Part shown: in pieces, positions 8,256 through 35,034 of the stretch
How the letters are laid out: each line of letters opens with the position of its first letter
How positions within the stretch are numbered: position 1 is the stretch's first letter
Assembly: GCA_021793315.1 (NCBI GenBank)
Contig: JAJYSZ010000001.1
Coordinates: 52,423 to 116,422 of the forward strand
DNA from: Bacillota bacterium
Lineage (GTDB): Bacteria; Bacillota; Sulfobacillia; JAJZYS01; JAJYTV01
DNA: 64,000 nucleotides
Direction of reading: 5' to 3'
The notes under the pieces: model-generated
Seen by the model: the letters and a program-made list of their open reading frames with translations, nothing else
The model's database searches: none
Told to the model about the DNA's origin: nothing
Program-made: the position numbers and the translations under genes

Positions 8256-9503
8256 CTAAGCCCCGGTCGACACGACCTTTGCGGCCACCTCCGTCTTGCC
8301 GAACCAGAGGACGAGCAATAGCGCCACAAGCGAACTCGCGATGCTGACCAAAAACATGGCCTGATATGCCCCATGCGATACGGCGATCACCTGGCCCGCG
8401 AGCGGCGCCGCCACCATCAGGCCGAGCGACTGCACGAGGTTGGCATTGCCGTAGAGCGCGCCATGCAAGTGCGCGGCCATCTCCTTGGCGTCGTCCTCGC
8501 TCAGGCCGCGCCGCAGGTGCTGGCGCAGCATGTCGGCGGCCAGGGGATAGCTCGTCACCTGGATGCCGCCCCAGGCAAGGCCCGCGACAAAGAGGAGCAT
8601 GAAGGCCTCGCTGACGGTCGTGAGCCAGAGTCCGGTCGATGCCGCGAGCGCAAAGAGCGCAAGCGTCGCTCCGAGCAGGATGCGCGCATCGTGCCGCTCG
8701 TAGAGGCGGCCGAACCAGAGCGAGACGAAGATGCCCGCCACCGTGAAGACGGACATGCCGAGCGCGGAGTCGAGCAGGCTGCCGTGCAGGGAGTGCTCCA
8801 TGTACGGCGTGAAGAAGCTGGCGATCGCCTCGAAACTCAGCCACCAGAGCCCCTGCGCGACGTAGTACTTGAGCAGCGCCGGGCTGCGCAGGGCGGCGGC
8901 CGCACCCCGCGCCGGGCGCTTGGGCGTCTCGCTGCGCTCCTTGGCCGTGAACGCCGTCCAGAGGCCGCCGCCGAGCAGGATCACCGCGCCGAGCACGAAG
9001 CCCAGCACGTGGCTCACAAGCTCGTACACCAGCGGCACGACAAGGAAGGCGATCAGGTTGCCGAGCGTCCAGAGCAGGTTCAAGATGCCCGACGCCTCGC
9101 CGTAGTCCTTCTCCTCCACGCGGTCCGGCATCATGGCCTGGTAGGGCGTCGGGCTGAGCTGCTGGAAGAAGTAGAAGAGAAGGGTCGCCGCGATGGCAAG
9201 CGTCAGGCTCTTCGTCAGGTAGAAGAGCATCAGCATGATCGCCGCACCGGGGAACGCGACGAAGAGATAGGGACGGCGCCTGCCAATCCTGGTTGGCGTG
9301 CGGTCGGAAAGCCAGCCCGAGAGGGGGTTCAGCACCACGCCGAACAGGCCCTCCGCGCCGAGCACCGAACCGATCAGCTGCGTCGACGGCGTCAGGGCGC
9401 CGAGCATCGCCGCCGTGAAGACCTTGTTCATGCCCCAGCCGACGTTGCGTCCGAGCCCTGCGAGTCCGAGCAGCCACACGTAGCGGCGCTCGCGCTTGTC
9501 CAA
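8256..9503 (-). CDS. MFS transporter (GPH/sugar-phosphate-like)
   Basis: 415 aa, 12 TM, DRTPTRIGRRRPYL motif after TM2. Confidence 0.8.
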   Translation of the reverse strand: MDKRERRYVWLLGLAGLGRNVGWGMNKVFTAAMLGALTPSTQLIGSVLGAEGLFGVVLNPLSGWLSDRTPTRIGRRRPYLFVAFPGAAIMLMLFYLTKSLTLAIAATLLFYFFQQLSPTPYQAMMPDRVEEKDYGEASGILNLLWTLGNLIAFLVVPLVYELVSHVLGFVLGAVILLGGGLWTAFTAKERSETPKRPARGAAAALRSPALLKYYVAQGLWWLSFEAIASFFTPYMEHSLHGSLLDSALGMSVFTVAGIFVSLWFGRLYERHDARILLGATLALFALAASTGLWLTTVSEAFMLLFVAGLAWGGIQVTSYPLAADMLRQHLRRGLSEDDAKEMAAHLHGALYGNANLVQSLGLMVAAPLAGQVIAVSHGAYQAMFLVSIASSLVALLLVLWFGKTEVAAKVVSTGA

Positions 9504-9527
9504 CGGTGAGCCCTCCTGTGACGGTGC

Positions 9528-10220
9528 CTAGTCTTGGCGGTTCCGCTTGCCCATGTGCTCGATCAGCAGGTCCGGGCGGTTGCTCGCGATGCCATCCACG
9601 CCGATCTCCTGGCAGAAGGCGAACTCCTCCACGGTGTCCGCCGTCCAGATGGAAAGATGGAGGCCATGGGCGTGCGCTGCCGCCACCTCTTCACGGCTCA
9701 CCGTCTCGAGCGCCGGCAGCAGGATCTGCGCGCCGGCCTTCTCCGCGAGCAGCCACGGCTCGATCGGCGCCCCGGCGTAGAGCACGCCTGCCGTGAGCCC
9801 CTGGACCTGCTCCGTGAGCGCACGGATCAAGGCGTGGCCGAATGAGATCGGCCAGAGCCGCTCGCGCAGTTCGGGACGCCCGCGGTAGAGCGCGATCAGG
9901 CCCGGGACCGCCTCGGGCGTCTTCACCTCCACCACGACGGGCAGAGCGACCGCCTCGAGCACCTCCTCGAGGGTCGGCACCCGCTCACCGTCGCCCGCGT
10001 CAAGCGCCTTGATCTCCCCGAGGGTGCGCTCGCGCACCGGTCCTTTGCCGTTCGTCGTGCGGTCGAGGGTCGCGTCGTGGACCACGACGAGGGCGCCATC
10101 GCGGCTCCGGTGCACGTCGCACTCCACAAGGTCCACGCCAAGTTTCTCCGCGGCCCGAAACGCTCTCAGGGTGTTCTCCGGATGCTGTCCCGAAAATCCG
10201 CGGTGCGCGATAAGCCACAT
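9528..10220 (-). CDS. glycerophosphodiester phosphodiesterase
   Basis: IAHRGFSGQHPENT, DLVECDVHRSRDGALVVVHD, GDPD catalytic motifs. Confidence 0.85.
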   Translation of the reverse strand: MWLIAHRGFSGQHPENTLRAFRAAEKLGVDLVECDVHRSRDGALVVVHDATLDRTTNGKGPVRERTLGEIKALDAGDGERVPTLEEVLEAVALPVVVEVKTPEAVPGLIALYRGRPELRERLWPISFGHALIRALTEQVQGLTAGVLYAGAPIEPWLLAEKAGAQILLPALETVSREEVAAAHAHGLHLSIWTADTVEEFAFCQEIGVDGIASNRPDLLIEHMGKRNRQD

Positions 10221-23244: not shown

Positions 23245-23583
23245 CTACAGACTCAGGGAGTTCTCGAGGGGCAGCACGAAGACGACGGTGCCGCTCTCCC
23301 AGTCGCCGTAGGCGTAGGGCTGCGCCGGCCCCGCGCTCTGGCGCAGGTCCTGCACGATCTCGTCCACGTCGTCCTCGGGTGCCACCAGCACCAGCACCGC
23401 GCTGCCGCGCCTGAGAAAGCCCCCCTGGGCCAGAAGGCGCGTGAAGCGTCGCTGCCGGTGGCGCAGGAAGGTCTCCACTTTTCCCAGCCGCGGCTCAGGC
23501 ACCACGGCGATCACCTGACGCAGTCCCCCGCCGTGGTTCTCGTCCGGCACGGGTTGTCCCCCTCCGCTCTGGTCTCGCCTCAT
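23245..23583 (-). CDS. DarA/YaaQ-like PII-fold c-di-AMP receptor protein (DUF970)
   Basis: RQVIAVVPEPRLGKVETFLRHRQRRFTRLLAQGGFLRRGSAVLVLVAPEDDVDEIVQDL...SGTVVFVLPLE aligns along its length with B. subtilis DarA. The ATG at 23583 overlaps the dnaE2 stop (ATGA). Alternative GTG at 23512. Confidence 0.65.
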   Translation of the reverse strand: MRRDQSGGGQPVPDENHGGGLRQVIAVVPEPRLGKVETFLRHRQRRFTRLLAQGGFLRRGSAVLVLVAPEDDVDEIVQDLRQSAGPAQPYAYGDWESGTVVFVLPLENSLSL

Positions 23584-26500
23584 TCTACGCGCAGACCCAG
23601 GTCAGGCTCAAAGAGTTCCTCCGCACGCAGCGTGAGGCCCCGCCCGCGCCGCTGCACCCTGCCCAGGACGCCCAGAAGGGGCGGCCGCTTGCCGAAGAGC
23701 AGGTCGCCCTGGCGCCGGTAGACATCTTCCATTGCGACGAGATCCAAAAGTCCTGTCTCATCCTCGAGCATAAAGAACGCCACCACCGCACCGCTGCGCG
23801 TCGGCGGCCTGTGCGGCCGGTATGGCACGCCCGCCACGCGGACCGTCTCGCCGTGGCGCAGATGCTTGGTGAGCCCGACGCTGGCGATGCCCTGCCGCTT
23901 CAGGGCCGGTCTGGCCGCCGCCGCGAGGCGGCTGGGCCCGCGCAGGCCGAGCACGGCCTCCTGGCGCCAGAATCGCTGCCAGGGCGCGAAATCCGGCATC
24001 TCCGGCGGCACGGGAGGGAAGAGGCCGTCCGCCTCGCGCCGCGCCCCGATCTGGAGGAGCAGCCGGCGCCGGTTGCGGTCGAAGCAGTCGAGGGCTCCCC
24101 CGTCGCAGAGCGCCGCAAGCTCGTCCGCCTTGAGGCCTGTGCGGGCGGCCAGGTCCTGCAGGCTCCGGAACGGCCCTTCCCGCCGTGCCGCCAGGATGCG
24201 TTCGCGCTGCGCCGCGCCGAGGCCGCGCACGGCGCAGAGCCCTACGCGCACGGCGCCGTCGGCCTCCACCGTATAGGAAGACTCGGATCGCCTGATGTCG
24301 AGCGGCCGGAAGCGCACCCCGCGCCGCAGGGCCTCGCCGACCAGGATGTGCGGCGGGTAGTAGCCCATCGGCTGCTGCGACAGAAGCCCGGCGAAGAGCG
24401 CCTGCGGGCGGCGGGCGGAAAGCTGCGCGGTGCGCAGCGCGGTGTGCGCGAAGGCGGCGGCATGCGCCTCGGGAAAGCCGTAGCTCGCATAACCCTGCAG
24501 CATCGCGAAGATCTCCCGCGCCACCGTAGGATCGCTGCCGTTCTCGGTCGCCTTCTGACAGAAGAGTTCACCCAGGCTCTCCATCTCGGCGGCCGAGCGC
24601 GCATGCGTCATCACGCGGCGCAGCTGGTCGGACTCGCCCAGCGTGAAGCCGCCGATCGTGGTCGCGATCTCGATCACCTGCTCCTGGAAGAGCACGACGC
24701 CGTACGTCTTCTCGAGGATCGGCCTGAGGCGCGGATCGAGGTAGGTGACGCTCTCCTGCCCGGCGCGCCGCCTGAGATACGGGGTGACCATGTTGCCCTT
24801 GATCGGCCCCGGCCGGATAATCGCGAGCGCATGGACGATGTCCTCGAAACTCTTCGCGCCCATCTGCCCTTGCAGGGCGCGCTGCGCCGGGCTCTCGAGC
24901 TGGAAGAGCCCGATCGTCTCCCCCGAGGCGACGAGCGCCATCGCCGCAGGGTCTTCCGCGGCCCTGGCCTCGGCAAGATCGGGCGCGGCCCTGTACGCCT
25001 CGTCCAGCACGGCGAGCGTGCGCAGGCTGAGCAGGTCGAACTTGAGGAAGCCGAGATCCTCGACATCCACCTTGTCGAACGGCACGATCGCCACACCCTT
25101 GGCCGACAGTTGGCGCGGCGCCACCTCGTTCACGGGCTGGCGGCTCACGATCAGCCCGCCGAGGTGCGTGCCGAGATGGCGCGGCAGCCCGGCCACGGCT
25201 GCCGCCGCGCGCAGCAGCAGCGCAAGGCGCTCGGAGGCGCCGGATGCCGCCTGAAGCTCGGGAAAGAGGTCCCAGTGTTTTAGAATCGCATCAGCGGGCA
25301 TGTGCGGCAGACGGCGCTGCAGTTCCTCCACCTCCGCGGCGGGAAAGCCGAGCGCCTTGCCGAGGTCGCGCACGGCCGAACGCCCCTGAAACGTCTGGTA
25401 GGTGGCGACGCCAGCGACATGTTCCTCGCCATAGCGCTGGAAGAGGTAGGCGGCGACGCGGTCGCGCGCGCGGTGGTCGAAATCGAGGTCGATGTCGGGC
25501 CGCTCGGCCCGCTCGCGGTTCAGAAAGCGTTCGAAGAGCAGGTGCCGCGCGATCGGGTCGACCTCCGTCAGGCCAAGGCAGTAGGCGACGGCGGAGTCCG
25601 CGGCCGAGCCGCGCCCCGCGACGCGGATGCCCTCCGAGCGCGCGAAGCGGACAACATCCCAGACAAGCAGGAAGTACTCGGCGAAACCGAGCTCCGCGAT
25701 CGTGCCGAGCTCGTGCTGCAGGCGCCGCCTCACCTCCTCCCGCAGGCTGCCGTAGCGGCGGATGGCCCCCTCGTGCACCAGTTGCTCCAGCATGCCCTGC
25801 GCCGTGTGTCCCGGCGGCAAGGGATAAGCGGGGTAGAGGCGCACGCCGGGCGTGATCGGTGCGCTGCAGCGCGCTGCGATCTCGTCGGTCGCCGCAATGA
25901 GTTCCGGCCGGTCCGAGAAGCGCTCCCGCATCTCCGCCGCGGAGAGAAGGTAGCGCTCGCCGTTCAAGGGACGCTGGGGGCGCACCTCGTCGACGCTGCA
26001 GCCGAGCCGCACGCACGTCAAAAGGTCGTGCACCCAAAAATCCTCGCGCCGCAGGTGGTGCACCGCCGCGCTTGCCGCCTGCGGCAGGTCCAGGCGACGC
26101 GCAAGCTCCTCAAGTCCCGCCTCGAGAGCCAGGTCGCCAGGCAGGGCACCGCGCTGCACCTCCACATAGAGCCGGCCGGGAAACAGTTCGCGCAGGCGCC
26201 GCAGCGCCTGGTCGGCGAGATCCGGGCGCCTCGTCAGGAGCGCTCTCGCAACCGGGCCCGTACGGCCGCCGGTGAGCGCGATCAGCCCATCCTCGCCGGC
26301 AAGCGCCTGATACGGCAGGCGCGGCGCACCCCGCCGGGAGCCGAGATGTGCCGTCGTCAGCAGGCGGCAGAGCCCCGCATATCCCTCTGGACCCGTCGCG
26401 AGCAAGGTCAGGCGCGCACCGTCCGCAAGCGTCACCTCGCTGCCGGCGATGGGCTGGATGTCGAGCCGCCGCGCCGCACGGCAGAGGGACGGCACGCCGC

Positions 26501-26627
26501 TCACGCTGTCATGGTCGGTGAGGGCGATCGCCTTCTGTCCGAGCTCCGCCGCGCGCGTGGCCAGCGCCTCGGGCATCGCCGTCCCGTCCAGAAGCGAGAA
26601 GGCGGAGTGCACGTGCAGGTGCACCAA
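23580..26627 (-). CDS. dnaE2: error-prone DNA polymerase DnaE2 (Pol III alpha C-family)
   Basis: PHP domain HLHVHSAFSLLDG, full Pol III alpha core, ~1015 aa without tau/beta-binding tail. Probable TTG/GTG start near 26627 after AGGAAGGA. Track ORF runs to 26711. Confidence 0.9.
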   Translation of the reverse strand: MVHLHVHSAFSLLDGTAMPEALATRAAELGQKAIALTDHDSVSGVPSLCRAARRLDIQPIAGSEVTLADGARLTLLATGPEGYAGLCRLLTTAHLGSRRGAPRLPYQALAGEDGLIALTGGRTGPVARALLTRRPDLADQALRRLRELFPGRLYVEVQRGALPGDLALEAGLEELARRLDLPQAASAAVHHLRREDFWVHDLLTCVRLGCSVDEVRPQRPLNGERYLLSAAEMRERFSDRPELIAATDEIAARCSAPITPGVRLYPAYPLPPGHTAQGMLEQLVHEGAIRRYGSLREEVRRRLQHELGTIAELGFAEYFLLVWDVVRFARSEGIRVAGRGSAADSAVAYCLGLTEVDPIARHLLFERFLNRERAERPDIDLDFDHRARDRVAAYLFQRYGEEHVAGVATYQTFQGRSAVRDLGKALGFPAAEVEELQRRLPHMPADAILKHWDLFPELQAASGASERLALLLRAAAAVAGLPRHLGTHLGGLIVSRQPVNEVAPRQLSAKGVAIVPFDKVDVEDLGFLKFDLLSLRTLAVLDEAYRAAPDLAEARAAEDPAAMALVASGETIGLFQLESPAQRALQGQMGAKSFEDIVHALAIIRPGPIKGNMVTPYLRRRAGQESVTYLDPRLRPILEKTYGVVLFQEQVIEIATTIGGFTLGESDQLRRVMTHARSAAEMESLGELFCQKATENGSDPTVAREIFAMLQGYASYGFPEAHAAAFAHTALRTAQLSARRPQALFAGLLSQQPMGYYPPHILVGEALRRGVRFRPLDIRRSESSYTVEADGAVRVGLCAVRGLGAAQRERILAARREGPFRSLQDLAARTGLKADELAALCDGGALDCFDRNRRRLLLQIGARREADGLFPPVPPEMPDFAPWQRFWRQEAVLGLRGPSRLAAAARPALKRQGIASVGLTKHLRHGETVRVAGVPYRPHRPPTRSGAVVAFFMLEDETGLLDLVAMEDVYRRQGDLLFGKRPPLLGVLGRVQRRGRGLTLRAEELFEPDLGLRVE

Positions 26628-26753
26628 TCTGCATACGTCCTTCCTGGGGTGCGCAAAGCCTCCCCGGCGCCGGGCGACGGGAGGCGGCCAGCAGGAACCC
26701 ATCCGACCCATCCGGAACGAGCCTCAGCAGAAGGAGGCGGCGCTACGCGCGAA

Positions 26754-27263
26754 CTGACCTTCCGCCGCCTCCAGGCGGGCGATCTGCCGCTCCTCGGCTC
26801 CTGGCTCGCCCTGGAGCCGGCCCTGCGCTGGTACCAGGGCGGCAAGGCGCCGACGGCGGCGGAGCTTGAGGCGAAGTACCTGCCGCGCATCCGCGGCGAG
26901 GTGGCGGTCGCCTGCTGGATCCTGATGCGCCAGGAGCAGCCGGCCGGCTTCTTCCAGACCTATCGCCTGCGGGACTTCCCATCTCATCCAGCCGGTCCCC
27001 GACCGCGCGCCGCCGCCCTTGACTACCTGCTCGCGCCGTCGGCGCAGGGCCAGGGCCTTGCCGCCCCGGCCCTGCTCGCGTTCCTGCATCAGGTGGTGTT
27101 CGCGGCGCCGGACATCCTGCGCTGCTACGCGGATCCTGACCCGGCCAACCTCGCCTCGGTGCGCTCCCTGCGCCGCGCAGGCTTCCGCAAGAGCCCCGGG
27201 CCCCAGGCCGAAGGGGTCATGCTGCTCTCCTGCACGCGCCGCCGGGCCTTCGCTCAGTCGTAG
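26754..27263 (+). CDS. GNAT N-acetyltransferase, AAC(6')-Ib-like family
   Basis: LTFRRLQAGDLPLLGSWL...RWYQGG...YLP...LDYLLAPSAQGQGL...CYADPDPANLASVRSLRRAGF parallels AAC(6')-Ib. Strong AAGGAGG RBS at 26731-26737, but no ATG/GTG/TTG in frame between the RBS and the conserved N-terminus (candidates CTG 26754 or ACG 26745). Convergent with and overlapping the DUF4113-like ORF by 10 nt. Confidence 0.65.
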   Translation: MTFRRLQAGDLPLLGSWLALEPALRWYQGGKAPTAAELEAKYLPRIRGEVAVACWILMRQEQPAGFFQTYRLRDFPSHPAGPRPRAAALDYLLAPSAQGQGLAAPALLAFLHQVVFAAPDILRCYADPDPANLASVRSLRRAGFRKSPGPQAEGVMLLSCTRRRAFAQS

Positions 27264-27499
27264 TTGCGGGTCAGGGTCCAGTCGCGCCTCTCGAGATCGA
27301 AGAGAAGCTCGAACACGCCGCCGCCCTCGGTCTCGACGCGGTAGACCTGGCGTTCGCCGTGTCCCTCCCACCACTCGCCGGCCTCCCGCCAGGCCTCGAG
27401 CACCCGCGCGACGCGGTGCCGGCCGCGGAAGGAGAAGGCGAGCGGCGCTCCGTCCCTGCGTGCGGCCACCGGCACCGGCCGGTTCACGAGTCTCGACAT
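27254..27499 (-). CDS. DUF4113-like ImuB C-terminal domain protein, encoded as a separate ORF
   Basis: 81 aa (EAWREAGEWWEG...YRVETEGGGVFELLFDLERRDWTL). In the same frame as imuB, separated only by a TAG stop and 7 codons. Own GAGGGG RBS 6 nt before the ATG. Confidence 0.5.
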   Translation of the reverse strand: MSRLVNRPVPVAARRDGAPLAFSFRGRHRVARVLEAWREAGEWWEGHGERQVYRVETEGGGVFELLFDLERRDWTLTRNYD

Positions 27500-27520
27500 C
27501 GCATTCCCCTCGCTCTCCGT

Positions 27521-28654
27521 CTATTGCCGCAGCTCAGCCTCGCCGCGCCGGTAGGGGTCGTAGTAGGCCAGGCGCTGCTCCCGCCCGGGCAGGCGCTCCA
27601 GGGGCGGCGGCCCCGGCTTGCGCCGCTCGGGCGCCCGCGCGGCCGGATAGAAGAGACCGCGCTCCTGGCTCGGCTGCGCCTCCTCGGTCGCCGGCAGAAG
27701 GCGCAGGCAGATCTCGTGCACGCCGCCCCCGGCAGCCGCAAGGGCCATGCCGAGCAGGGTCGCCTCCAGCCGGCGCCGCTCGCGCGTCGGTTGGAGCAGG
27801 GTGCGACAGGTCGTCCTGCGGCGGGCCGCCATGTCCTCGATCGCCAGTTCGAGTGCCCCGATCGAGGGCAGGCGCCGCTGCCCGGCGGTCAGCGCCGAGA
27901 GCGCCTCCGTCACCGCCTGGGCGATCTCGACCCGGTTCGTGCAGGCCGCCTCGGGGTAGCTGCGCCGCCACGAGAGGTCCTGTGGCGGCTGCAGCGGCCG
28001 ATAGCCGATAGGCTCTTCGGCTTGCGCGAACTGCCAGAGCTCCCGCCCGACAGGGCCCACCTGCTGCCACAGGGCGCCAGCGCCGAGCGCAAGCACCTCC
28101 CCGACCGTCCTGAGTCCGAGCCCGCCAAGGCGGCGCTGCGCCGACGGCGGCAGCCAGTCGAGCGCCGCGAGCGGCAGATCGCCCCGCTCGCCCGCGCAGA
28201 CGAGTCCACCCGGCACCTCTGCGGGCACGCCGCCGCGCACCCGCGCCTTGGCAAGGCGCAGACTCTCACCCGCCGCCACGCGCACCCGCCAGCCGATGCC
28301 CCGACAGGCCGCGATCGCAGCCGGAATATCCTCCGTCGACCAGAGCTCGATCGCCATCTCGCCGATACCGCACTCCATCACGCCGCGCGCCACGGTGAAG
28401 AGACGCTGGCGCAGTTCCGCCTGCAGTTCGGCGCAGGCGGCGTCCCCGGGATCCCGGCGCCAGAGCAGTCCCAAGGCGATCAAGGCGGCCGGGGACAGTT
28501 CCTGTCCCTGTACGAGTCCGCTGCCCGCCCCCCGCTCCGAAAGATCGCGCAGGCGCCGGCCCGAAAGCACGGCAAGGGGCTTTTCGACGAGTTCGGGCTC
28601 GCGCTGCTGCAGAGCCTGGGCTCTCAGGCCGTCGACCTCCACGTATAGCAGCAT
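27521..28654 (-). CDS. imuB: ImuB-like inactive Y-family DNA polymerase, N-terminal polymerase-fold part
   Basis: MLLYVEVDGLRAQAL... Y-family fold with degenerate catalytic residues (EVD instead of DMD; GIGE instead of SLDE). 377 aa, shorter than typical ImuB because the C-terminal domain is in the next ORF. Confidence 0.8.
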   Translation of the reverse strand: MLLYVEVDGLRAQALQQREPELVEKPLAVLSGRRLRDLSERGAGSGLVQGQELSPAALIALGLLWRRDPGDAACAELQAELRQRLFTVARGVMECGIGEMAIELWSTEDIPAAIAACRGIGWRVRVAAGESLRLAKARVRGGVPAEVPGGLVCAGERGDLPLAALDWLPPSAQRRLGGLGLRTVGEVLALGAGALWQQVGPVGRELWQFAQAEEPIGYRPLQPPQDLSWRRSYPEAACTNRVEIAQAVTEALSALTAGQRRLPSIGALELAIEDMAARRRTTCRTLLQPTRERRRLEATLLGMALAAAGGGVHEICLRLLPATEEAQPSQERGLFYPAARAPERRKPGPPPLERLPGREQRLAYYDPYRRGEAELRQ

Positions 28655-29705: not shown

Positions 29706-29794
29706 ACGGACCATTGAACGACGGCGGGTCGCCTCGAAGGCGGCCCGCCGTCCTGTTGTTCTCGCGCAAACCCCGAGCCGGCCGCGTGGCCCTG

Positions 29795-30613
29795 CTACGC
29801 CAGGGCCGCTGCGAACAGGATGTGGCCACCCGCATCCGGGCTGTGCCTGCAGGCGTCGCACTCCGCTTCGAGCAGTGCGGCGAACATCTCAGGGCGACTC
29901 TTGAGCGCTGCGAGCTGCGCGTCCGGCAGCGAGAGCAGGCAGTCGGTCGCGGAGAGGTCGAGGACGTGCAGTCCGCTGCGTCCGAGCAGGGCCCGCAGTT
30001 CCTCGGCGTGCAGCATCTTCGCCTGGTGCTCGGAAAAATGCTCCGTCAGCAGACCCGTGCGGTAAACCTCGAGCAGTTCCTTGCCGCCGATCGACGGCTC
30101 GGGCAGCCAGCCCGTATGGAGCGCCATGCCGAGGGCTCCCATGGTGCTCATGACGCTGCCGACCAGGCGCCCGCCCGGCCTCAGAAGACGGGCAAGCAGC
30201 CTCAGGCCGGCTTCCATGTCTTCCGGATAGTAGTTCAGGGCGCCGCCGAGGCAGAGGATGACATCGAACGTGCCGACGTCCAGGTCGCCAAGCTCAAAGA
30301 GACTCAGGTGCAGAAAGCCTTCAGCGGACAGGCCATGCTCGGCGAACCGCTCCCGCGCCGCGTCGAGCATGGCAGAAGAGATGTCGAGCAGGGTGACCTG
30401 GGCCCCGCGGCGCGCGAGCCCGAGCGCGAAGCGCCCGGGGCCGCTGCCGACGTCCAGGGTGCGCCCGGCGGGCAGTGCCCAGCGCCGGAGGAACTCGGCG
30501 ATCACCAAAAGCTGCACTTCGCCGAGCGGCGTTTCAAAGCGGCCCCATTCCCGCCCTGCCCCATACCCGTCATAGAAGGCCTCGATCCGGCCCTCGCGAT
30601 CGCGCAGGTCCAC
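29795..30613 (-). CDS. class I SAM-dependent methyltransferase
   Basis: Motif I LDVGSGPGRF, motif II/III spacing. 272 aa. Confidence 0.85.
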   Translation of the reverse strand: MDLRDREGRIEAFYDGYGAGREWGRFETPLGEVQLLVIAEFLRRWALPAGRTLDVGSGPGRFALGLARRGAQVTLLDISSAMLDAARERFAEHGLSAEGFLHLSLFELGDLDVGTFDVILCLGGALNYYPEDMEAGLRLLARLLRPGGRLVGSVMSTMGALGMALHTGWLPEPSIGGKELLEVYRTGLLTEHFSEHQAKMLHAEELRALLGRSGLHVLDLSATDCLLSLPDAQLAALKSRPEMFAALLEAECDACRHSPDAGGHILFAAALA

Positions 30614-30699
30614 GTCACGCCTCCCGTTCGGCTTTCGTCGCCAACCGCTTGGCCAACGAGAAAGTGTTGTCGCGCACGCAACCGCGTTCCTGCCGCTGC

Positions 30700-31254
30700 C
30701 TAGAGGCCGAGCTCCGCCCTGGCTTCCTGCAACGCCGCGATGACGTTCTGGATGTGCTCGTCGAGCGGCACGCCGAGTTCCTCCGCCCCCTGGACGATGT
30801 CATCGCGGTTGACGCCGCGCGCGAATGCCTTGTCTTTCATCTTCTTGCGCACCGACTTCGCCTCGAGGTTGTCGAGTCGCTCGGGCCGCACGAGCGCCAC
30901 CGCCACCACGAGGCCCGACAGCTCGTCCACGGCGAAGAGCGTCTTCGCCATGTCGGTCGTCCGAGCCACCCCGGTGTGGTTGCCGTGCCCGAGGATGGCC
31001 TGCAGCATGTCTTCGGGATAGCCATGCTGGCGCAGGATCTCGACGCCCTTGTAGGGATGGTCCTCGAGGCTCGGGTAGATCTCGTAATCCATGTCGTGCA
31101 GCAGGCCTGTCAGGCCCCAGCGCTCAGGGTCCTCCCCCCGCAGCATGGCGTAGTGCCGCATCGCGGCCTCCACCGCCAGGGCGTGCTTCAGGAGCTGCGG
31201 CGACTTCGTGTACTCGCCGAGCAGCGCAAAGGCTTCGGCACGGGTCTTCTCCAA
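30700..31254 (-). CDS. HD-domain phosphohydrolase
   Basis: H...HD motif (LLHDMD) and downstream His/Asp ligands. 184 aa. Confidence 0.85.
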   Translation of the reverse strand: MEKTRAEAFALLGEYTKSPQLLKHALAVEAAMRHYAMLRGEDPERWGLTGLLHDMDYEIYPSLEDHPYKGVEILRQHGYPEDMLQAILGHGNHTGVARTTDMAKTLFAVDELSGLVVAVALVRPERLDNLEAKSVRKKMKDKAFARGVNRDDIVQGAEELGVPLDEHIQNVIAALQEARAELGL

Positions 31255-31258
31255 GTGG

Positions 31259-31687
31259 TTACTCCCCCTTGATCTCGATATCGGACGGCACCGGCAGAAA
31301 GGTTCCCTCCGCCTCGGCCACCACGTCCCCCGCGACGCGGATCACCGCCTCGGTCCTGGCAAAGCGGCGGCTGGCGCGCAGGCATCTCGCGTCCACCTGG
31401 AAGACCTGCTCCGTCGGCAGTGGCCTGCGGTAGCGCACGGAGATCTCGGCGGTCGCCACGCCTGGCATGCCGCGCATCGCGACAGCGTAGTACATCGCCT
31501 CGTCGAGAACCGCCGCGACGATTCCGCCGTGGCTGCGGCCGACAAAGCCCTGCAGATGGGCCGGCACGACCCCCTCGGCCCGGGCGCCGTCGTCCGTCTT
31601 CTCGAAATGCAGGTGCAGTCCCTGTTCGTTCTCGGCGCCGCAGACGAGGCAGCTGCCGTCGTCACGCCAGATCGACTGCCCGCTCAA
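31259..31687 (-). CDS. PaaI/4HBT-family hotdog thioesterase
   Basis: GGIVAAVLDEAMYYAVAMRG motif. 142 aa. Overlaps the upstream CN-hydrolase by 4 nt. Confidence 0.8.
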   Translation of the reverse strand: MSGQSIWRDDGSCLVCGAENEQGLHLHFEKTDDGARAEGVVPAHLQGFVGRSHGGIVAAVLDEAMYYAVAMRGMPGVATAEISVRYRRPLPTEQVFQVDARCLRASRRFARTEAVIRVAGDVVAEAEGTFLPVPSDIEIKGE

Positions 31688-32742
31688 TGCGTTCCGCCCC
31701 GCCAGAAGCCAGAGTAGACGCGCGGGAAGTAGCGCTCGTAGAGTGCGGGGTTGAGCTGCAGGGGCTGCTCCTCCCGCAGGTGGCGCAGGGCCGCCACGTC
31801 GAGGTCCGCCAGTACGAGCGCCTCCCCCTCGGGACGGTCCGAGATCGCGAGGCGCCCGTCTCCGTGCTCGGTCAGGGCGAGCGGCGCATAGATGCCGGCA
31901 TGCCCCGTCAGGCGCATGCCAAGCGCCTCGCCGACCAGGGCCCCCTGCACGCCGAAGACCTGCGACTCCTGCACGCGCGGCCAGATGCCGCGCAGCGCTT
32001 TCCAGGGGCTGTACGGATACTCGGGGTCCGCCATCGGCAGCACGACGATCTCGGCACCGAGCTGGCGCAGGATGCGGAACGTCTCGAAGAAGGTCGCGTC
32101 CATGCAGACCGGCAGGCCGATCCTGCCCAGGGCCGTGTCGAAGACCTCGAGGTCTTCACCGGCCGTCAGCCCCCACTCCTCTTCGAGGGGCAGCAGATGG
32201 CACTTGGCCTGCTGCAGGATGCGCCCTTCGGGCGTGAAGAGATGGCCGATGTTGAGCACCCGTTGGTCGGCGAGCGGCAGGACGGCGGAGCCCGCTGCGA
32301 TGTGCACGCCGTAGCCCCGGGCGAGTGTCGCGAAGGTGGTCTCGTAGATGCGTCGCGTCGCACGTCCCAGCAGGCGGAAGAGGTCCGCCACCTGGACGTC
32401 CTCGCCGACCTGGCGCAAGGCCTCGTCCACCGTGAAGTTCTTCAGCATCGGGCCGAGACCGGGCATGACGCCGACCAGAAGACTGGCGGTGTCCTCCGGG
32501 AAGGCGACGAGTTCGGCCCCCTCGCCGACGGCGGCCCGGACCCTGTCGTAGATGAGGTCGGCGAATTCCTCCGCACTCTCGCAGAGCCGCCACTCCATCT
32601 GCACGGCGGCCGCACGGACGACGCCCACCTCGGGCGTGCGCACGCGATGGCGGAAGCCGCGCCGGTGCAGTCGCCGCGTGACGCGGCCGGGTCGCGAGCG
32701 CATCTGCAGCATGAACTGCAGGGTGAAGTCGCGCAGGTTCAT
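31684..32742 (-). CDS. carbon-nitrogen hydrolase (nitrilase superfamily), catalytic triad intact
   Basis: VRAAAVQM start of the CN domain. E in ELVAFPE, K in QQAKCHL, C in GLPVCMDATFFE. Confidence 0.8.
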   Translation of the reverse strand: MNLRDFTLQFMLQMRSRPGRVTRRLHRRGFRHRVRTPEVGVVRAAAVQMEWRLCESAEEFADLIYDRVRAAVGEGAELVAFPEDTASLLVGVMPGLGPMLKNFTVDEALRQVGEDVQVADLFRLLGRATRRIYETTFATLARGYGVHIAAGSAVLPLADQRVLNIGHLFTPEGRILQQAKCHLLPLEEEWGLTAGEDLEVFDTALGRIGLPVCMDATFFETFRILRQLGAEIVVLPMADPEYPYSPWKALRGIWPRVQESQVFGVQGALVGEALGMRLTGHAGIYAPLALTEHGDGRLAISDRPEGEALVLADLDVAALRHLREEQPLQLNPALYERYFPRVYSGFWRGGTH

Positions 32743-33749
32743 GGCAGTCTCCTGTATACGAGCGGCAGATACTTGCGGTAGAGACCCGGATTCAGGTGGC
32801 GCAGCAGGGGGTAGTCGCGGCGCACCTTCTGGATATCGTCGACGCGCAGCGCAGCCACCTGCGCCCCCGTACCCACGAAGTAACCCGGCCGCGGGAGGAA
32901 GCCGGCGTCGTCTTCCGTCATCTCGCAGGGCGCCAGGATCGCAGCCCGGCCGGCATAGGCGCGCTCGCCGACCATGCCGTAGAGGCCCGCCTCGACGCCG
33001 AACACCTGATTCTGCTGCACCTCCTGCCAGAGACCCCAGAGCGCCTCCTCCGATGGGTAGGGCGCTGCCGGCGCCAAGGGCGCGAGGAGAATATCGGCGC
33101 CCTGCAGCGTCAGGATGCGGCTCACTTCCGGGTACCAGGCGTCTCTTCCGACAAGCAGGCCGACCTTGACTCCGGCATCGACCGCGATCGGGGAGATTTC
33201 GTCCGATACCGCCTGCACCAGCGCGTCACGGTGCGTCTGCAGCTGCTCGCCCACCAGGTTGCCCTGGCGGTCGAACACGGCGGCATACTGCTGCAGGCGG
33301 GACTGTGGGGTCATGAGATACACCGTGCCTGGCACGACGACGGCGCCGAGCGTGCGTGCGGCATAGCTGCCTGCGGCCAGATAGGCGTCCTTGAGCGATG
33401 CGTCCGCAAGTGCCGACCCCTCAGGGTCGGCCAGATCCAGCTGTGGAACGAGACCCAGCGCCAGCAGGCCTGGGAACAGGTAGAGGTCGGCCGGATTGCG
33501 CTGGGCTGTGGACTCCGCGGCCTGCACCAAGGCGCGGCCAAAGGATGCTGCGTCGGGTGCGGCGAACGGTGGGAGGCGAAACGTCGCCACGGTGAAGTCG
33601 CGCTCCAGCGTTGCCCCTCCTCGCACGAAGCTACAAGCCCGTTTGACGCATTTCCGACATATATCGGCAAACTCCTGCAGAAAGGGATGCACCATCATCG
33701 AAGACTCATCCGCCATGAGCCTTGCGGCATGGGAGCAGGGCTTCGCCAC
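32739..33749 (-). CDS. CN-hydrolase paralog lacking the E-K-C catalytic triad (probable pseudoenzyme)
   Basis: Same fold and C-terminal tail as the neighbour, but LYLFPG (E to G), QTHRD (K to R) and GLLVGRDAWYPE (C to G). ATGA overlap with the downstream active paralog. The true start may be internal (MMVHPF...). Confidence 0.65.
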   Translation of the reverse strand: MAKPCSHAARLMADESSMMVHPFLQEFADICRKCVKRACSFVRGGATLERDFTVATFRLPPFAAPDAASFGRALVQAAESTAQRNPADLYLFPGLLALGLVPQLDLADPEGSALADASLKDAYLAAGSYAARTLGAVVVPGTVYLMTPQSRLQQYAAVFDRQGNLVGEQLQTHRDALVQAVSDEISPIAVDAGVKVGLLVGRDAWYPEVSRILTLQGADILLAPLAPAAPYPSEEALWGLWQEVQQNQVFGVEAGLYGMVGERAYAGRAAILAPCEMTEDDAGFLPRPGYFVGTGAQVAALRVDDIQKVRRDYPLLRHLNPGLYRKYLPLVYRRLP

Positions 33750-35034
33750 AGGTGCATGGGCGGCTGGCGAGGACTACGTCCTGGCTGAGCGCGTGCAGGA
33801 CCTGCGACGCGACCGGAAGACGCTCGCCGGGCGGGTTCGCGGCGCCCACGGCGACTATTGGGTGCGGCTCGAGCTCGCGCTGCCTGTCGCTTCGGTCTGC
33901 GATTGTGGCAGGCCGCGCTGCCGGCACGCCGCCGCCATCGTCCAGGCGTATCATGCCCGCAGATTGCCAGTGACCGACGTCGGCCGAATGGTGGAGGAGT
34001 TCCTGGCCCATCCGCGCAGGGAACCTCTGGCCGCGGCAGCCATGGGCGAGGACCTTGTCGCCGCCATGGCGCTGCCGCCGCTGGACGTCGAGGACGTCTG
34101 GGCGCTTCAGGGCGAGCGCCGCCTGCTGGCCCTGGACGCGGCCCTGCGCGTCGCACCCGATCCGCATCACCTCCTCTTGCGGGCTCTGCCCGAGGCGGAA
34201 CACGACCCCGATCTGCAGGCACTCCTGGCGAGCGCCCTGTCGGATCGGTCGCCGTCCGCCGCCACCTGGCCATCGCTGCTGCGCCAGGCGCCGGAACCCC
34301 TTGCACCGCTGCTGGCCGATCTGAGGCCGCAGGACCTCTCCCCCGAGGCGATCCTGGCAGCGCTCTGGCAGGCCGGCGCGGACGGCGACCGGCGGGGGCT
34401 TGTGCGCCTGGCGCCGCACGCAGCGGCTATCGCGCCCAGGCAGGCCTACCATGCGCTCGACGCTCTCGCCCAGGGTACGCCCGAGCTGATTTTGGCGCTG
34501 CTCGCCGCGGCCAGGAGCGCGGGCTGCCTGCAACGCGCCGCGGTGCGCCTGCTGCGGAGGGCGGACAGCCTGCCGCAAGCGCAGGCGAAGACGATCCATG
34601 AGGTGCTGGTCCGTCAGGAGGACCTGCCGCTCCGCCTCAAGGTGCTCCTGCGCGTGCGCGCGGCGGCCGACGCCGGCGGCTCCGCGCAGATCCTCGCCGC
34701 ACGGCGCGCGGCCATCTCGGCAGGCGTTTGGCCCAGCTTGCGCCCAGGGATGCTGCGGCGCATCCAGCATCGCCCCGACGGCCCCATCCTGGAGACGCAA
34801 CTGCTGCTCGCGGAGGGCGACCTCGATGCTGCCGCGCGGGCCGCCGATCGCTGCCGGTCCTCGCCGCTGCCGGAGCACCTGGTGGCCGAGGCCCTGCGCT
34901 CGGTCGATCCGGCGTCGGCACGGCGTCACGAACTCAGGGCGCAGGCCCTCGCAGCGCAGCTTGCCGGTGCCGAAGATCGGCCGCGGGGCAGGTTCGGCGG
35001 CGGACGAGGAAGAAATCCTAGGCCACGGAGGTGA
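33715..35034 (+). CDS. SWIM zinc-finger domain protein with long alpha-helical repeat region
   Basis: YWVRLELALPVASVCDCGRPRCRHAAAIVQAY is a CxC-Xn-CxH SWIM motif. 440 aa, Ala/Leu-rich helical C-terminus. Confidence 0.7.
   Translation: MSLAAWEQGFATGAWAAGEDYVLAERVQDLRRDRKTLAGRVRGAHGDYWVRLELALPVASVCDCGRPRCRHAAAIVQAYHARRLPVTDVGRMVEEFLAHPRREPLAAAAMGEDLVAAMALPPLDVEDVWALQGERRLLALDAALRVAPDPHHLLLRALPEAEHDPDLQALLASALSDRSPSAATWPSLLRQAPEPLAPLLADLRPQDLSPEAILAALWQAGADGDRRGLVRLAPHAAAIAPRQAYHALDALAQGTPELILALLAAARSAGCLQRAAVRLLRRADSLPQAQAKTIHEVLVRQEDLPLRLKVLLRVRAAADAGGSAQILAARRAAISAGVWPSLRPGMLRRIQHRPDGPILETQLLLAEGDLDAAARAADRCRSSPLPEHLVAEALRSVDPASARRHELRAQALAAQLAGAEDRPRGRFGGGRGRNPRPRR

Follow-up and report, generated by a model that had tools for sequence, protein, structure and literature searches.

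A conserved triad-less paralog beside an active carbon-nitrogen hydrolase in Bacillota: a probable two-subunit enzyme of the nitrilase superfamily

The DNA considered here is a 64,000-nucleotide (nt) stretch of a Bacillota contig (hereafter the window, to whose whole length all coordinates refer), from which a run of open reading frames (ORFs) was analysed. Five ORFs of the ORF list, all on the minus strand, follow one another at this locus, and the subject of this study is the first two of them, a pair of overlapping genes that both encode members of the nitrilase, or carbon-nitrogen hydrolase (CN_hydrolase), superfamily. One product retains the catalytic residues of the superfamily and will be called active, and the other, encoded upstream, lacks the Glu-Lys-Cys triad and will be called dead. 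The two genes and their junction are as follows.

32739-33749, minus strand: dead CN_hydrolase paralog, putative pseudoenzyme subunit (Pfam PF00795, 50 bits; family alignment; triad read-out)
31684-32742, minus strand: competent CN_hydrolase, putative amidase-like subunit (Pfam PF00795, 61.3 bits; alignment to 1j31/6ypa)
32739-32742, minus strand: ATGA stop/start overlap of the dead and active genes (sequence read directly)

Both proteins score above the PF00795 cut-off of 23.2 bits and hence are members of the CN_hydrolase family by profile. A reading of this DNA made from its letters alone (the sequence-only reading) had reported tandem CN_hydrolase genes overlapping by ATGA, and direct inspection of the sequence and the Pfam matches agree with it. 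The junction reads ccATGAac, with AGGAG 8 nt upstream, and this 4-nt overlap is a predicted case of translational coupling between the two genes. The dead and active proteins share 34% identity over 216 residues (E = 3e-23) as well as a C-terminal tail of the form LNPxLYxxYxPxVY, and are, as judged from these alignments, clear paralogs.

When the active copy is aligned to the solved amidase of Pyrococcus horikoshii (1j31/6ypa), used as the reference, Glu83 (AFPE), Lys180 (QAKCH), and Cys213 (PVCMD) fall on the catalytic triad, as had been proposed for the downstream copy, and the second glutamate, Glu220, is also kept. In the dead copy, Gly201 faces the nucleophilic Cys of 6mg6 (GLLVGRDAWYPE vs GLMVCWDQWYPE), and family and profile alignments show Gly94 in place of the Glu and Gln171 in place of the Lys. 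The sequence-only reading had assigned G, R, and G to these positions; the two glycines were found as described, but the Lys is replaced by Gln171 (LQTH vs AKCH) and not by the Arg of QTHRD. The absence of all three catalytic residues was nevertheless confirmed, and the profile alignment did not relocate them elsewhere in the upstream copy. The second glutamate, Glu208, is the sole survivor of the catalytic set, and Asp203 is kept along with it. The upstream protein is thus a structural, not a catalytic, member of the nitrilase superfamily.

The same division is seen at the level of whole families. A profile search of 1.84 billion representatives returned 394 proteins at E <= 1e-30, dead and active families together, and the four catalytic positions of the pooled sequences, read through one profile, gave the following residues in 158 dead-type and 139 active-type domains.

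First Glu position: variable in dead-type domains (Ala in 53, Gly in 48, others in the rest; n = 158); Glu in 138 of the 139 active-type domains
Lys position: Gln in 146 of the 158 dead-type domains; Lys in all 139 active-type domains
Cys position: Gly in 135 of the 158 dead-type domains; Cys in all 139 active-type domains
Second Glu position: Glu in 153 of the 158 dead-type domains; Glu in all 139 active-type domains

The pattern x-Gln-Gly-Glu is therefore conserved across the dead-type domains. The dead/active family is widespread; it occurs in Bacillota, Chloroflexota, and Armatimonadota, and clustering at 50% identity divides it into a few hundred groups.

A search with the dead copy itself found 33 homologs, which come from Thermaerobacter, Calderihabitans, other Bacillota, and one Armatimonadota metagenome-assembled genome (MAG), and all of which are triad-less. 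They have the motifs QxQTH, GxDAWYPE, WQEVQQNQ, APCExT, and LNPxLY in common, and conservation of the dead protein across phyla extends to identities as low as 35%. The ratio of nonsynonymous to synonymous substitution rates (dN/dS), computed against L011, the closest relative of the window, was 0.09 (dead gene) and 0.08 (active gene), and purifying selection on the dead gene is as strong as on the active gene. Internal stops in orthologs of the dead gene, named beforehand as the sign of a decaying pseudogene, were looked for and none was found; the frame is intact in every ortholog examined. The AlphaFold2 (AF2) model of the dead copy has a predicted local distance difference test (pLDDT) score of 85.5, and its best Foldseek matches in the PDB are CN hydrolases, with template modelling (TM) scores of 0.68-0.8, so that the four-layer alpha-beta-beta-alpha fold of the dead copy is predicted to be intact. 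The retained fold and the shared C-terminal tail, both of which had been claimed for the upstream copy, are thus supported by this model and by the alignment of the two paralogs, respectively.

According to the AF2 secondary structure, 14 of the 25 invariant dead-family columns lie in residues 201-217, which form the helices after the lost Cys, in residues 241-248, which form the WQEVQQNQ helix, and at residues 320 and 324 in the C-terminal tail. We take these post-Cys helices, the WQEVQQNQ helix, and the C-terminal tail to be the two-fold 'A' dimer surface of nitrilase structures. Conservation of these helices and of the tail, together with a free Glu position, is what would be expected if the interface, not the chemistry, is under selection.

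Some relatives fall outside the two-class pattern of catalytic residues (P0163, P0271, P0284, P0234, P0086, P0092, and P0098). P0163 is a two-domain protein with Glu-Lys-Gly-Glu in both domains, i.e., with the Cys lost twice, and in several single-domain relatives of 'active type' the Cys is replaced by Gly, Ser, Thr, or Arg. Such exceptions could reflect either additional pseudoenzymes derived from the family or errors of sequencing.

The dead gene lies upstream of the active gene in all 18 complete loci (18/18), which are from Bacillota, Chloroflexota, and the cultured Thermaerobacter marianensis. The window and each of the 16 complete loci of the set L001-L017, from which L016 was left out because a contig end truncates it, have the dead gene directly followed by the active gene on the same strand, and the active genes of these loci carry the full Glu-Lys-Cys-Glu set. 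Three loci were reached through the active protein, and each of them also has a dead partner. In most related loci the two genes are adjacent, usually with an overlap of ~4 nt. When genomes were scanned with the dead-family alignment, only L011-L017 were true members; some 70 further matches, drawn in by a second pattern, DxWYPE, were generic CN hydrolases of Bacteroidota and other phyla and were disregarded. In T. marianensis DSM 12885 (CP002344.1; L091, 4477-5949), the upstream gene encodes a 490-amino acid (aa) member of the dead family (202 bits), whose first strand is followed by a Pro/Ala/Gly-rich low-complexity insertion of ~150 aa and whose C-terminal tail is likewise of low complexity; no domain is assigned to it in precomputed Pfam, and it is effectively unannotated. 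In the coordinates of CP002344.1, as derived from L091, this dead gene occupies ~972357-973829 and its active partner 973881-974999. The only locus seen in which the dead and active genes are not adjacent is L092 (3670-7098, a Chloroflexota MAG), where a 356-aa multi-pass membrane protein without a Pfam match is encoded between them. Based on these comparisons, the dead/active pair appears to be a conserved unit.

The two proteins also occur as natural fusions. Two-domain fusions of 616-839 aa make up 12 representatives at 50% identity, or ~20 clusters at 90% identity, and all fusions that were read out have the dead domain at the N-terminus and the active domain at the C-terminus, which is the order of the separate genes. 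Identical copies of the fusion P0296 were found in two independent assemblies, a 724-kb MAG contig from NCBI and a Logan assembly, and the P0296 locus has none of the accessory genes that accompany the pair in the window. Another fusion, P0053 (616 residues), was modelled by AF2 from an alignment of 20 fusions with a pLDDT of 88.7 and a predicted TM score (pTM) of 0.89, and pLDDT falls below 50 only in the linker (residues 273-292) and in the C-terminal residues 606-616. Because pTM is 0.89 for a two-domain chain of 616 residues, the domains appear to be confidently placed, and the dead and active domains of P0053 are predicted to be packed against each other. When the P0053 model was compared with the PDB, single-domain matches only were returned (TMq ~0.35), and both domains match amidases. 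The upstream copy had been regarded as a pseudoenzyme partner rather than as a product of random decay, and this is upheld by the existence of a triad-less family, the dN/dS of 0.09, the retained fold, the presence of an active neighbour in every locus, and the fusions.

With regard to chemistry, the nearest proteins of solved structure are the P. horikoshii amidase, Nit2, a Nesterenkonia amidase, and D-carbamoylase. As these are amidases or carbamoylases and none is a true nitrilase, the active enzyme is most likely an amidase by analogy. Scores against true nitrilases were 55.7 bits for nitrile_Arch (NF040852; cut-off 500) and 22.2 bits for Nit6803 (TIGR04048; cut-off 502.6), and none of the five window proteins reaches a named NCBIfam equivalog, all such matches being below threshold.

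Considering these results, we propose that the overlapping genes encode an obligate heteromeric CN hydrolase composed of one catalytic and one pseudoenzyme subunit, and we put the probability of this reading at about 0.7. Loss of the triad, purifying selection, the predicted fold, co-occurrence, and recurrent fusion are the observations on which it stands, and from these and the models we infer a physical complex of the dead and active subunits through the canonical dimer surface. The upstream paralog would have arisen by duplication and would then have lost Glu, Lys, and Cys, so that the only active site (Glu83-Lys180-Cys213 plus Glu220) would be held by the downstream product. Having retained the fold together with the C-terminal tail and the helices of the dimer interface, the dead paralog would replace the second protomer of the two-fold dimer, which is the building block of the superfamily, and the enzyme would be asymmetric, each dimer having a single active site. 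The dead subunit may complete and stabilise the catalytic subunit, and possibly it also activates it or helps to shape the substrate site. The ATGA overlap, by coupling translation, would favour equal amounts of the two subunits.

Several points weigh against this proposal. The pTM of P0053 comes from a shallow alignment of 20 sequences, and the loci were chosen by homology to one or the other partner, so that they are not an unbiased census and orphan genes may exist elsewhere. Also, the amidase chemistry is putative, and the NCBIfam equivalog scores are far below their cut-offs. In addition, Gln171, His173, Asp203, and Glu208, which surround the site of the lost triad, are kept in the dead family, and this would fit retained ligand binding too.

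The surroundings of the pair bear on an alternative, put forward in the sequence-only reading, according to which all five genes form one dedicated pathway acting on an acyl-coenzyme A (CoA)-derived or amide/nitrile-containing metabolite. The other features of the locus are as follows.

31259-31687, minus strand: hotdog-fold 4HBT/PaaI-like thioesterase, clade-specific accessory (Pfam 4HBT)
30700-31254, minus strand: HD/HDIG phosphohydrolase-domain protein, lineage-specific neighbour (Pfam HD; TIGR00277)
29795-30613, minus strand: class I S-adenosylmethionine (SAM)-dependent methyltransferase (Pfam Methyltransf_25/12/11)
29720-29752, no strand assigned: GC-rich 15-bp hairpin, candidate transcript end (terminator scan)
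33715-35034, plus strand: divergent gene of ~439 aa (ORF list; no Pfam/NCBIfam match)

In favour of a common pathway, four of the window genes are linked by 4-nt overlaps or gaps. The active and thioesterase genes overlap by 4 nt at caTTGAgc, where the thioesterase has a TTG start, and a 4-nt gap, with GGGGGAG upstream, separates the thioesterase stop from the HD start, in line with the spacing of 4-5 nt noted earlier for these two genes. Between the HD and methyltransferase genes lie 86 nt, and the latter gene starts with GTG behind a separate ribosome-binding site, GGGAGG. Downstream of the methyltransferase stop, the hairpin at 29720-29752 lies between the convergent methyltransferase and DUF2203 genes; it was a single match of the terminator scan, not above shuffle expectation and backed by its position only, and it likely marks the transcript end.

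The Pfam 4HBT score of the thioesterase is 44.3 bits (cut-off 20.6), which bears out the hotdog fold, but the name PaaI does not hold at the level of the equivalog TIGR02286 (33 bits, cut-off 118.9). Also in support of a pathway, the thioesterase gene adjoins or overlaps the pair in L011, L001, and L002/3 with orthologs of 46-72% identity, but these are one clade and the only loci where it does so, and it is missing from at least 12 other loci. The HD protein matches PF01966 (39.8 bits, cut-off 22) and TIGR00277 HDIG (34 bits, cut-off 27.6) and reaches no specific subfamily; its ortholog adjoins the pair in L011 and L001, but is unlinked in L003, lying 8 kb away, and the HD gene is probably not tied to the pair. 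The methyltransferase, previously called a class I SAM enzyme, is indeed one (Methyltransf_25, 69.8 bits against a cut-off of 27), with a best NCBIfam score of 62.8 bits below its cut-off of 180. It is not present in L001, and the methyltransferases near other pairs are non-orthologous, resembling it over the SAM domain only (~35% over ~146 aa). We considered the methyltransferase as a conserved partner and rejected this, as its likeness to other loci is limited to that domain; it is probably an unrelated neighbour.

The fusion genes also stand alone, and in other lineages different genes accompany the pair. An MFS transporter gene lies directly upstream of the pair in six loci, often overlapping the dead gene, and a GH125-family protein is encoded near the pair in six loci; Candidatus Contubernalis and Dethiobacter are among the lineages with these linked genes. 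In NCBIfam the MFS proteins have generic transporter matches only, and the GH125-family protein has no match. Thus, the dedicated five-gene pathway did not survive the neighbourhood comparison, in which only the CN_hydrolase pair is universal, and we consider it unlikely; its variant, breakdown of CoA or pantetheine with a pantetheinase-like amidase, is speculative. The five-gene set is instead a local arrangement, with the thioesterase, HD, and methyltransferase genes outside the conserved unit, and the neighbours gave no lead to the substrate.

Other features of these neighbourhoods were observed as well. The window methyltransferase matches PADLOC mad2 (75.5 bits) over the SAM-binding domain only and looks generic; nothing else matched among the PADLOC defence models, and no other defence component is near it. 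A protein of 466-481 aa directly follows the active gene in L005 (10105-11505), L010 (7116-8561), and L015 (~8274-10214); a Methyltransf_25 gene lies upstream in all three and an MFS gene in two of the three. The 466-aa protein of L005, the only member scanned, has no Pfam or NCBIfam match. Long ORFs on the opposite strand over the hydrolase genes, in the window (31684-33749) and in related loci, appear 'conserved' in all-vs-all BLAST and are shadow ORFs typical of ~68% G+C DNA, not genes. Elsewhere in the window, at 23580-28654 on the minus strand, there is an error-prone polymerase cassette, which has the same arrangement beside the hydrolase pair in L001. Its members are a DnaE2-like PHP/DNA_pol3_alpha protein (23580-26711; 1043 aa), a small DUF6504 protein (27254-27499), and, in the position of an ImuB-like gene, a protein of 377 aa without a Pfam match (27521-28654).

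A second alternative is that the upstream protein acts on its own in a non-catalytic role, binding a ligand or serving in regulation, for instance as a sensor or as a carrier of the substrate, and only shares the operon. The near invariance of Gln171, Thr172, His173, Asp203, and Glu208 is consistent with this, but most of these residues are equally conserved in the active family and so look structural, and the recurrent fusions and the confident packing of the fusion model argue for physical association. We regard this alternative as improbable. It is more improbable still that the upstream protein is an enzyme with a relocated site, for example one that uses the Cys of the APCE(M/L)T motif. 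This Cys275 is specific to the dead family (Leu in the active family) and belongs to a conserved motif beside Glu276, but it is present in only 107 of the 158 dead-type domains, and 40, several fusions included, have Val or Leu, as would be expected of a hydrophobic residue in the protein interior but not of a nucleophile; Glu276 and Thr278 are, moreover, common to the active family too. With Val or Leu in a quarter of the members, Cys275 was rejected as a relocated nucleophile. Finally, decay of a pseudogene after a recent tandem duplication, which could account for the loss of all three catalytic residues, is refuted by the low dN/dS, the intact frames, the conservation across phyla, and the family-specific invariant motifs.

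The 5' end of the dead gene is complicated by the divergent gene. The annotated GTG start at 33749 overlaps the start (ATG 33715) of the divergent plus-strand gene, and because that gene begins at ~33715, GTG 33749 is the less likely start; the true start of the dead gene is probably ATG 33698/33695 or GTG 33626. Homologs of the dead copy are 293-306 aa long. The N-terminus 'MSEM...' annotated in the homologs P0006-P0008 corresponds to ATGTCGGAAATG at 33660, and in the window this reading is out of frame and ends after 9 codons, which points to a frame difference of the 5' region in the window's lineage. The divergent 439-aa protein, which has no match in Pfam or NCBIfam, has counterparts of 446-449 aa at the same position in L001 and L002/L003, and the gene is kept beside the pair only in the window's own clade. 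Within it, CDCGRPRCRH forms a CxC...CxH motif that recalls a SWIM zinc finger, and a conserved protein of ~155 aa accompanies its counterparts in L001 and L002/L003.

To our knowledge, characterised members of the nitrilase superfamily are all built from identical, all-active subunits. The proposed heteromeric enzyme shares its Pfam family and fold with the superfamily amidases (1j31/6ypa, the mouse Nit2 omega-amidase 2w1v, the Nesterenkonia amidase, and D-carbamoylase), and its active subunit has Glu-Lys-Cys(-Glu) in the standard places. Unlike these amidases, however, one protomer would be the product of a separate, conserved, triad-less gene, and the active subunit is enlarged by two family-specific elements, a basic stretch of ~40 aa at its N-terminus and, following the Glu strand, an insert of ~50 aa. 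As far as is known, the NIT4 subunits of grasses all retain the triad and assemble into helical filaments. Jenrich et al. reportedly described heteromeric NIT4A/NIT4B nitrilase complexes from these plants in 2007. The likeness to NIT4A/NIT4B lies in paralogous superfamily subunits, a hetero-oligomer, and activity that depends on the mixture, whereas here one partner is triad-less and the genes are bacterial, predicted to be translationally coupled, and sometimes fused.

Further analogies are found in other folds. PqsB and PqsC of Pseudomonas aeruginosa, which are encoded by adjacent genes, form a FabH-like heterodimer in which PqsB is without catalytic residues. As in the present case, an active enzyme and a dead paralog from adjacent bacterial genes make up a functional heterodimer there, but PqsB/PqsC has a thiolase fold and known chemistry and bears no sequence relation to the pair. 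In trypanosomatids, S-adenosylmethionine decarboxylase is activated by a dead paralog. Trypanosomatid deoxyhypusine synthase is likewise activated by a catalytically dead paralog, the 'prozyme' (PMC3663545). In these systems, as proposed here, a duplicated gene loses its catalytic residues, stays under selection, and becomes the obligatory partner of the active paralog; they differ in that the folds are other ones, the organisms are eukaryotic parasites, and activation was measured there and is inferred here. No description of a triad-less partner subunit in the nitrilase superfamily was found in the full-text literature searched, whose coverage was incomplete, and the analogies found were from other folds only. 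Thus, the principle of a pseudoenzyme partner is known, and such a partner appears to be new for the nitrilase superfamily.

It is tempting to go further and speculate, at odds that we place slightly below even, that the pair is the first 'prozyme'-type system of the nitrilase superfamily. In this scenario, the amidase would be active only as a heterodimer with the dead paralog, which would activate it or build part of the substrate site, and in several lineages the substrate would be imported by the MFS transporter encoded beside the GH125 (mannosidase-family) protein.

The usual view of nitrilase-superfamily enzymes, in metabolism as well as in industrial biocatalysis, is that of homo-oligomers whose subunits are identical and all active. 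If the proposed heteromeric enzyme is real, it would represent a new quaternary arrangement for the superfamily, with subunits that are either separate or fused, and it would account for a possible lack of activity or stability of a 'nitrilase' from these organisms that is expressed without its partner. The annotation of both genes, which are now labelled 'nitrilase-related hydrolase' or 'hypothetical', would be corrected as well. Furthermore, the evolution of pseudoenzyme partners from homodimers could be followed with the pair as a tractable bacterial model, one that includes a cultured thermophile.

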